The notes under the pieces are model-generated. The model saw nothing but the letters and a program-made list of their open reading frames with translations, did no database searches and was not told the origin of the DNA. Positions 2,606 to 4,142 of a stretch of DNA of 4,142 nt are shown here, piece by piece. Origin of the DNA: a virus (lineage: Duplodnaviria; Heunggongvirae; Uroviricota; Caudoviricetes); IMG/VR virus record IMGVR_UViG_2547132415_000009, positions 1 through 4,142 of that record, one strand, 5' to 3'. The stretch's first letter is position 1. The number at the start of each line of letters is the position of its first letter. Made by a program: the position numbers and the translations under genes.

Positions 2606-2989
2606 TCAGAATGGGATGGAATCGTCGTATACAGGAGTGTTCTGCTGGTTACTACTTTGCTGCTGCGGGCCATTTCCTGAAGCTGCAAATCCAATCTTTG
2701 CATTCAGTAATTCAAGAGTGATTGATTGACCATTTTGCCCCTGATAAACATCAACCCTGATGTTTTCTCCGGTAATTTCCACAATGCCACCTTCAGCAAG
2801 AACACTACGGTAGTAATCCGCTTGCGCTCCCGGCTTGGCAAATACAACGGCGCTGTAGTTTGTCCATTCTTTCTTTTTTGTCTGGCGATCGTAATACTGA
2901 ACGCCAGCACGGATGTTGAATCCGATATTTTCCCCGGCCTGAAACTCTCTTGCGGGCTTGTTTAGTCTTACAGTAATCGAATGTGCCAT
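2606..2989 (-). CDS. Phage single-stranded-DNA-binding-like protein (lambda Ea10-like), 127 aa, with acidic C-terminal tip ...VYDDSIPF
   Basis: The C-terminus ends in DDSIPF, closely resembling the conserved SSB C-terminal protein-interaction tip (DDDIPF). The start ATG overlaps the erf stop (TAATG at 2987-2991). The ORF-track N-terminal extension to 3079 runs inside erf and is rejected. The Ea10 family assignment is from memory. Confidence 0.65.
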   Translation of the reverse strand: MAHSITVRLNKPAREFQAGENIGFNIRAGVQYYDRQTKKKEWTNYSAVVFAKPGAQADYYRSVLAEGGIVEITGENIRVDVYQGQNGQSITLELLNAKIGFAASGNGPQQQSSNQQNTPVYDDSIPF

Positions 2990-3594: not shown

Positions 3595-3683
3595 ATGTTT
3601 GTTCTCAGAATGGACATGGCCCAAGGAAATAACGCTGATTTAATACTTCAGTCTTTGCCGCATTTAAAAATACGCGAACACCT

Positions 3684-3854
3684 TCACGATCTCCCTTCTG
3701 GCGATACATTAACGCCTGCTGCGTGTACATGCGTCTCTGTAACTTGCTCTCCTTCACTGTGGTTGCAAGTGACATGCATATCTCCTTCGTTACCGATTAA
3801 TTCTTTCATCTGACGAATGAATTCTTCGTCTGACCAGTTATCTGTAAAACTCAT
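3684..3854 (-). CDS. Hypothetical small acidic protein, 56 aa, with a His/Cys cluster (MHVTCNHSEGEQVTETHVH); sits where kil/arf lie in P22
   Basis: ATG at 3854 overlaps the TGA stop of the cIII-like ORF (ATGA), with AAGG 6 nt upstream. The ORF-track start at 3884 is a TTG extension. No confident homology. Confidence 0.45.
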   Translation of the reverse strand: MSFTDNWSDEEFIRQMKELIGNEGDMHVTCNHSEGEQVTETHVHAAGVNVSPEGRS

Positions 3855-4021
3855 GGACGGCCTTGTTGTTTCAAAATATCCCAAAGCTTTTCGAGCAAAC
3901 TTTTCATTCTTGGTTGTTTAAAGTCTGCTCCGGTTAAAATATTTTTTCGTGAATGCTGTACCGATAAAATCGGGTTGAAAGGGCGAACCGATGCCGCCCC
4001 TGCAATAGCGAACTGTTGCAT
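3851..4021 (-). CDS. cIII-like small regulator, 56 aa (MQQFAIAGAASVRPFNPILSVQHSRKNILTGADFKQPRMKSLLEKLWDILKQQGRP); putative FtsH-inhibitor family
   Basis: Not in the supplied ORF track; found by hand translation. Strong Shine-Dalgarno AAGGAG with a 6-nt spacer before the ATG at 4021. The N-terminal MQ-FAIAG and C-terminal KLWDILKQQGRP resemble lambda CIII (MQYAIAG... KRLIDILNQPGVP) as I remember it, and the length is similar. Confidence 0.5.
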   Translation of the reverse strand: MQQFAIAGAASVRPFNPILSVQHSRKNILTGADFKQPRMKSLLEKLWDILKQQGRP

Positions 4022-4142
4022 AGGATGCTCCTTCTGTTTGATTGCATAACGAAAACGCCTCGAGTGAAGCGTTATTGGTATGCGGTAACGCCGCGCTCAG
4101 GCGGCTTTGATAGTCATATCATCTGAATCAAATATTCCTGAT

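Follow-up and report, generated by a model that had tools for sequence, protein, structure and literature searches.

The 56-residue open reading frame (ORF) at 3851..4021 on the minus strand of a 4,142-nt stretch of viral DNA (the window) is probably the cIII gene of a lambdoid prophage, belonging to a third class of CIII, and its product likely a transient inhibitor of FtsH that guards CII. It is a real and widespread prophage gene that occupies the lambda cIII slot of the early-left (pL) operon and shares the lambda cIII leader, its product is distantly homologous to CIII at both ends, and it co-occurs with cII.

CIII is a small protein that keeps CII, the switch protein of lysogeny, from being degraded by FtsH, a protease of the host. 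Lambda CIII (54 aa) belongs to the PF02061 class, which includes P22 C3 and 933W CIII, and the 44-aa CIII of HK022, H-19B and HK97, encoded between identical flanks in otherwise near-identical phages, belongs to PF08134. The published picture is one of two CIII classes (Kobiler 2007, PMC1838920).

The coding sequence and its conservation

An earlier note had described a 56-aa ORF with the Shine-Dalgarno (SD) sequence AAGGAG and a 6-nt spacer, and direct reading of the minus strand confirmed this. The start codon ATG is found at 4021-4019 and the stop codon TGA at 3853-3851, the spacer between AAGGAG (4033-4028) and the ATG reads CATCCT, and the product is MQQFAIAGAASVRPFNPILSVQHSRKNILTGADFKQPRMKSLLEKLWDILKQQGRP. 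The ATGA overlap between stop and start, also reported in the note, was likewise recovered, with the ATG of the next ORF at 3854-3852. The suggestion that a length cutoff had kept the ORF off the supplied track is consistent with the settings of the ORF lister, whose default of 60 aa exceeds the 56 aa of this ORF.

Since the window contains 63 ORFs of at least 20 aa, a length of 56 aa alone is not beyond chance, and so short an ORF could be read as a random frame in an intergenic leader, with no gene at all. The substitution pattern rules this out: in comparison with a homologue of 84% amino acid identity (P0013), synonymous differences were far above non-synonymous ones (pS 0.68, pN 0.10, dN/dS ~0.06), and dN/dS was ~0.18 in comparison with a 74% homologue. 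The ORF is thus identified as a gene by purifying selection (dN/dS 0.06-0.18 against diverged homologues), and with the strong SD, the translational coupling to the next ORF and a frame maintained in homologues down to ~40% identity (Yersinia, Hafnia and Erwinia phages), the probability of a chance ORF is negligible. The features of the locus are collected in Table 1.

Table 1. Features at and around the cIII-type ORF; positions are those of the window.
Feature	Position	Strand	Basis
3' end of the upstream ea10-like (DUF2528) gene, ending ...SGIFDSDDMTIKAA and stop	4097..4142	minus	translation
Terminator-like hairpin AACGCTTCACTCGAGGCGTT with T-rich tail, in the leader	4046..4073	minus	terminator scan
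Shine-Dalgarno AAGGAG	4028..4033	minus	read from the sequence; same SD context in the lambda cIII leader
cIII-type CDS, 56 aa, divergent third class (probable)	3851..4021	minus	ORF listing, dN/dS, PHROG 550, hhalign
Codons 10-15 (GCAUCGGUUCGCCCUUU), complementary to the SD-to-AUG segment 4018-4034; candidate 'closed' arm	3978..3994	minus	folding
Next small ORF, 56 aa, MSFTDNW...	3684..3854	minus	PHROG 2123, E 1e-39

Position in the early-left operon

The gene upstream of the cIII-type ORF, which PGAP names DUF2528 in near-identical prophages, has its last 15 codons (SGIFDSDDMTIKAA with the stop) identical to the C-terminus of lambda Ea10. Window positions 4034-4130 are ~94% identical to the end of lambda ea10 and the cIII leader, and the identity to lambda collapses two codons inside the cIII-type ORF. 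The shared stretch contains, at 4054-4073, a terminator-like hairpin with a run of T residues, located 20 nt upstream of the SD. Essentially the same hairpin sequence is found upstream of cIII in lambda, HK022, H-19B and HK542 (at 794-813 in locus L004), and it is near-invariant though the downstream cIII alleles span three classes. The lambda records carry no terminator annotation at this hairpin, which may be one of the tL2 sites. The conserved leader may have two roles, one regulatory and one as a linker at which cassettes are exchanged by recombination.

In a near-identical E. coli prophage the genes read, leftward, cI, two small genes, sieB, the DUF2528 (Ea10-like) gene and the cIII-type ORF, followed by a further small ORF, erf, an SSB-like gene and abc2, with cro, cII and O beyond cI on its other side. 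The placement of the window in an early-left operon, put forward in the earlier note, is borne out by the lambda-like ea10 end and leader and by the presence of cI, cro and cII upstream in this prophage. The lysogeny-control genes are not just upstream, as the note had it, but 2-3.5 kb further upstream, and it is the ea10-like gene that adjoins.

The same arrangement recurs among diverged members of the family. In all 13 such loci the third-class gene is found in the N/early-left region, directly before a recombination module of the Gam/RecT/YqaJ, RecT, Rad52, Erf or DUF3799 type. None of the third-class loci examined contained a gene of the PF02061 or PF08134 family, and Phage_CII was found in every third-class locus that reaches far enough (L011, L012, L014, L096 and L103).

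In HK022 and H-19B nearly identical flanks enclose a 44-aa HK022-type cIII and an overlapping 50-aa kil, and the slot is therefore an allelic, mosaic cassette site. It measures 272 nt for cIII plus kil in these phages, compared to a single ORF of 171 nt, without kil, in the window. In this comparison the ORF aligns with the start of cIII and not with kil. A cIII-kil fusion was rejected, as nothing in the ORF resembles Kil. What follows the third-class cIII varies: in L009 and L010 (4001-4461) it abuts gam directly, with no kil, and in L011 and L012 (4171-4275) it is followed by an ORF of 32-34 aa.

Distribution and existing annotation

At least 1000 public contigs hold the identical protein, as 'MULTISPECIES: hypothetical protein [Enterobacteriaceae]', and when at least 80% coverage was required, a 363-nt query comprising the ORF and its leader found matches in ~248 of the 5426 complete genomes of E. 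coli. The identical protein is also encoded by HK542, mEpX1, HK140, SPN9CC and other phages. An exhaustive profile search resulted in a third-class family of 34 clusters at 50% identity, all from Enterobacterales and all ~53-63 aa long, with relatives at 40-50% identity in Yersinia, Hafnia and Erwinia phages.

The ORF had been called unannotated in the earlier note, which is correct for the supplied track and incorrect for the public records. PGAP gives this coding sequence the name 'hypothetical protein', while lambda-class proteins appear at NCBI as 'protease FtsH-inhibitory lysogeny factor CIII'. The identical protein is labeled 'putative cIII protein' in the GenBank record of phage mEpX1 and 'CIII anti-termination' (PHROG-based) in RefSeq phages, and a Hafnia phage protein with 46% identity is a 'CIII-like protease inhibitor' in GenBank. 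The corresponding profile, PHROG 550 ('CIII anti-termination'), was matched at E 1e-22, with residues 1-56 of the ORF on positions 1-46 of 53, but part of this agreement is circular, since RefSeq applies the label to identical proteins of HK542, mEpX1 and other phages; 'anti-termination' is a misnomer for CIII. The idea that 3851..4021 encodes CIII is already present in databases and hence not new. PGAP, Pfam and NCBIfam do not recognize the ORF, however, and its architecture is unlike both described CIII classes.

Relationship to known CIII proteins

A Pfam scan of the ORF product gave nothing at E<=1, PF02061 and PF08134 included, and an NCBIfam scan gave no match. In the Pfam controls lambda CIII scored 105 bits and a Yersinia phage CIII 55 bits on PF02061 (gathering threshold 25.7 bits), and HK022 CIII 104.7 bits on PF08134 (gathering threshold 25 bits); a relative of the ORF with 40% identity reached 20.8 bits on PF02061, over its first 15 residues only. 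When 50,697 phage records were searched with tblastn, the ORF and lambda CIII matched disjoint sets, with no link to lambda or P22 cIII. Two Yersinia phages, considered as bridging sequences, were discarded since each carries one class and not an intermediate. Direct comparison of the ORF product with lambda CIII by BLASTP gave E 0.025.

A relationship emerged on comparison of profiles, where a third-class alignment of 19, later 37, sequences was matched by hhalign to a lambda-class alignment of 33 sequences over the full length (94% probability, E 1e-7). The score of 41.6 compares with 9.1 +/- 1.9 (maximum 16.9) for 300 column shuffles and with 11.8 for the reversed alignment. Residues 1-16 scored 25.2 (E 1.4e-8; shuffle maximum 12.6) and residues 17-56 scored 19.3, compared to 18.4 for the best of 150 shuffles, with 19.1-19.3 for the C-terminal part alone, and more than half of the profile signal originates from 12 N-terminal residues. 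The alignment to CIII families anticipated in the earlier note was accordingly obtained with the lambda-class profile and failed with PF02061, PF08134 and tblastn.

The resemblance to the ends of lambda CIII, which had also been pointed out, is real and is confined to the ends. At the N-terminus the CIII motif M-x-[YF]-A-I-A-G is present, with MQQFAIAG in the window (QFAIAG versus lambda QYAIAG, a shared M-Q-x-A-I-A-G start), and at the C-terminus LWDILKQQGRP corresponds to lambda LIDILNQPGVP (shared L-x-D-I-L-x-Q-x-G-x-P). By these comparisons the ends of the two proteins are homologous and the middle is not.

The essential region of lambda CIII comprises 24 residues (14-37) that form one amphipathic helix; S17, R24, L26, R27 and R32 are required, their substitution by alanine giving a cIII- phenotype, and the R32A mutant is dominant negative (PMC1838920). 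No reliable counterpart of lambda residues 14-27, including S17, R24, L26 and R27, was found in the ORF by hhalign, and the invariant lambda core ESLLERITRKLRDGW, which carries four of the five essential residues, is absent. Residues 41-56 of the window ORF (SLLEKLWDILKQQGRP) align, weakly, to lambda residues 28-43 (DGWKRLIDILNQPGVP), and the position equivalent to lambda R32 is a conserved K/R, represented by K45 in the window ORF. The conserved central helix that the earlier note had named as a check was thus for the most part not recovered, with the match limited to this distal part.

In place of the lambda core the third class carries a conserved inserted module, NILTGADFKQPR, in what amounts to a net insertion of ~11-12 aa relative to lambda CIII. 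The most conserved block of the class, ...NILT[GS]A[DS]F[KT]xP[RP].KS.L..., with T30, A32 and F34, has no equivalent (NILTGADF in the window) in any characterized CIII. A register that pairs KSLLEKL in the window with ESLLERI in lambda is attractive by eye and in members with a longer helix, but hhalign scored it at only 3.65, and more than one register is possible for the middle. The longer-helix members P0128, P0140 and P0144 (...KLFDxLxxxxNQ[PR]GxP) bridge towards the lambda pattern.

The relationship to the HK022 class is confined to a similar N-terminal segment, MxxFxxAG...F.P..S, with hhalign covering only residues 1-20 at 22% probability and no PF08134 match for the window ORF. Unlike the window ORF, HK022 CIII has a continuous helix, ends in ...LCAMK and is followed by an overlapping kil. 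Among the lambda-class CIII sequences of E. coli (alignment A3, P0107-P0121) many have a C-terminus of the HK022 type (...GWKRVEVLLCAMK) after residue 32, which indicates recombination within cIII between these two classes.

Predicted structure

AlphaFold2, run with the family alignment, gave an overall weak model of the 56 residues with a mean pLDDT of 61.6, in which a helix is predicted at 37-54 (10-residue-block mean pLDDT ~85) and another, of low confidence, at 17-29. The corresponding lambda-class model has a single helix at 18-37. The peak hydrophobic moment over 14 residues is 0.67 for the window ORF (residues 42-55), which is not significant when compared to shuffles of its own sequence (P 0.08), and 0.90 and 0.82 for lambda and HK022 CIII, respectively. 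The first predicted helix of the window ORF is not amphipathic (0.19), and the basic and strongly amphipathic lambda core ERITRKLRDGWKRL (moment 0.90) is absent. The window ORF thus has an amphipathic helix in the prediction, but it lies at the C-terminus and, set against characterized CIII proteins, it is shorter and its residues are less basic.

A small protein with an amphipathic helix is also known from Bacillus, where the 26-aa peptide SpoVM interacts with FtsH, and Kobiler et al. proposed for it an action on FtsH similar to that of CIII (PMC1838920). SpoVM and the window ORF have no sequence relationship, and organism and context differ.

RNA structure at the translation start

According to Altuvia 1989, as related in PMC6524683, translation of lambda cIII is governed by alternative structures of its mRNA, in which the SD and the AUG become occluded. 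In the window the closed fold was calculated at -15.5 kcal/mol, compared to -17.6 for the best open fold. A long-range helix between the SD/AUG segment and codons 9-16 recurs, with differing sequences, in mRNAs of the lambda, HK022 and window classes.

This pairing was assessed in 17 cIII-type mRNAs (from L002, L004-L009, L011, L013, L096-L102 and the window, 3968-4043). Cognate arms gave a mean of -18.0 kcal/mol, compared to -13.3 +/- 0.75 with permuted partners, and none of 10000 permutations reached the cognate value; the window's own duplex ranked only 10th of the 17. The covariation of the SD/AUG-sequestering helix across three CIII classes supports a shared control element, and we infer that the cIII-type gene is under translational control by RNA structure. 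In Rfam the window matched nothing beyond RsmY, at chance level (E 0.88) and away from the cIII-type ORF.

As the N-terminal codons are part of this RNA structure, some of the conservation of the peptide there may be imposed by the RNA, and the protein-level evidence from this segment weighs less. The function of the conserved CIII N-terminus was called unknown by Kobiler et al. (PMC1838920), and the SD/AUG helix offers an RNA-level explanation for it.

Proposed function and alternatives

The window ORF and lambda CIII have in common the genomic slot, an almost identical leader, co-occurrence with cII, both terminal motifs, the basic residue at the R32-equivalent position and a predicted SD/AUG-sequestering mRNA helix. 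They differ in the inserted NILTGADFKQPR module, in the PF02061 match, the ESLLERITRKLRDGW core and the following kil that the window ORF lacks, in the predicted helices (two, at 17-29 and 37-54, versus one at 18-37) and in the weaker and less basic amphipathic helix. Inhibition of FtsH is most likely the function of the product, judging from its genomic position, its terminal homology to CIII, the amphipathic helix that it retains and its co-occurrence with cII. A search of the literature found no experiment on the third CIII class.

The gene would be transcribed from pL, downstream of N and the ea10-like gene, and would use the same leader as lambda cIII, and its start could be masked when the SD/AUG segment pairs with codons 10-15, as described for lambda cIII. 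The product would consist of the CIII N-terminal motif, the class-specific conserved segment FNPILSVQHSRKNILTGADFKQPR, and an amphipathic helix (~37-54) with a QxGxP tail that may represent the distal part of the essential lambda helix. Early in infection this short-lived product would competitively inhibit the membrane protease FtsH (HflB), of which it would also be a substrate, and the resulting longer life of CII would favor lysogeny.

The leading alternative is a gene that descends from cIII and has acquired a changed or additional target by way of the NILTGADFKQPR module and the shortened helix, and that might cover the role of kil. No other part of the family is as conserved as the inserted segment, which neither of the characterized classes has, the essential lambda residues 14-27 have no counterpart, a single 171-nt ORF replaces the 272 nt of cIII plus kil in HK022 and H-19B, and the ORF abuts gam, with no kil, in L009 and L010. 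On the other hand, the ORF shows no resemblance to Kil (no Pfam match at all and nothing common in the sequences), and its product still has the C-terminal amphipathic helix as well as a conserved basic residue where lambda has R32. In addition, cII is still present in these phages with no other cIII candidate, so that a change of target would leave CII without its protector. We consider this alternative less likely than a CIII function, although it is one to be kept in mind.

A specific form of it, in which the third class combines an FtsH-inhibitory helix cut to its distal third with a new conserved 20-residue module (...SxQHSRxNILTGADFKQPR) that directs the protein to a target other than or beyond FtsH, in a cassette without kil, seems unlikely to us. 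If it were true, the conserved N-terminus of all CIII classes would be kept mainly by the SD/AUG mRNA helix and not by protein function.

It is also conceivable that the protein is unrelated to CIII, with the shared leader and start RNA constraining the first ~15 codons and the tail matching at the C-terminus by chance. The 12 N-terminal residues that give most of the hhalign score do overlap the covarying RNA helix, the score of 19.3 for residues 17-56 is barely above that of the best of 150 shuffles (18.4), and the BLASTP value is only 0.025. This reading is nevertheless quite improbable, given that the C-terminal match beats all 150 shuffles in two alignment partitions and is collinear with the N-terminal match, that both proteins end in an [NK]Qx-G-x-P tail, that P0128, P0140 and P0144 form a bridge towards the lambda pattern, and that the same genomic slot is occupied in many otherwise different phages.

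Other features of the window

A nearly identical counterpart of ORF 3684..3854 is found in HK022 and H-19B, where it comes after kil. In the window it overlaps a second 56-aa ORF (3605..3775, minus strand) by 92 nt in a different frame; both match PHROG families, and a diverged Enterobacter phage retains the two, with identities of 37% and 57%, respectively. Annotators disagree on the two, with 3684..3854 present in HK542, only 3605..3775 in PGAP and both in the HK022 record. The PHROG label 'recombinase' is doubtful for such small proteins. One of the two may correspond to P22 arf.

Directly after erf, a 127-aa ORF (2606-2989, minus strand) matches PHROG 44 (single-strand DNA-binding protein) at E 5e-27 and has no Pfam match. 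Its end, ...PVYDDSIPF, is similar to the acidic tip at the C-terminus of bacterial SSB, and its homologue is entered in the HK022 record as a 'likely analog of P22 Abc1'.

Positions 1-524 of the window lie inside a multi-copy insertion sequence (IS) of the IS3 family, presumably IS2, with an orfA that has an HTH_Tnp_1 domain; E. coli genomes contain the element at 3 places each (median). The end of the IS abuts the 3' end of a 248-aa phage ORF (522..1268, minus strand), and because the stop codon of this ORF is located in the last bases of the IS, the gene appears to be truncated by the insertion.

Implications

The third-class cIII overturns nothing in current understanding. It does allow a very common prophage gene of Enterobacteriaceae, named 'hypothetical protein' by PGAP, to be labeled as a cIII-slot gene, and this label establishes that the window is the early-left operon of a lambdoid prophage. 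Translational control of cIII seems to be conserved, judging from the start-site helix that covaries in all classes. With part of the essential helix and a conserved module of its own, the third class would constitute a natural experiment on which part of CIII is needed for the inhibition of FtsH.
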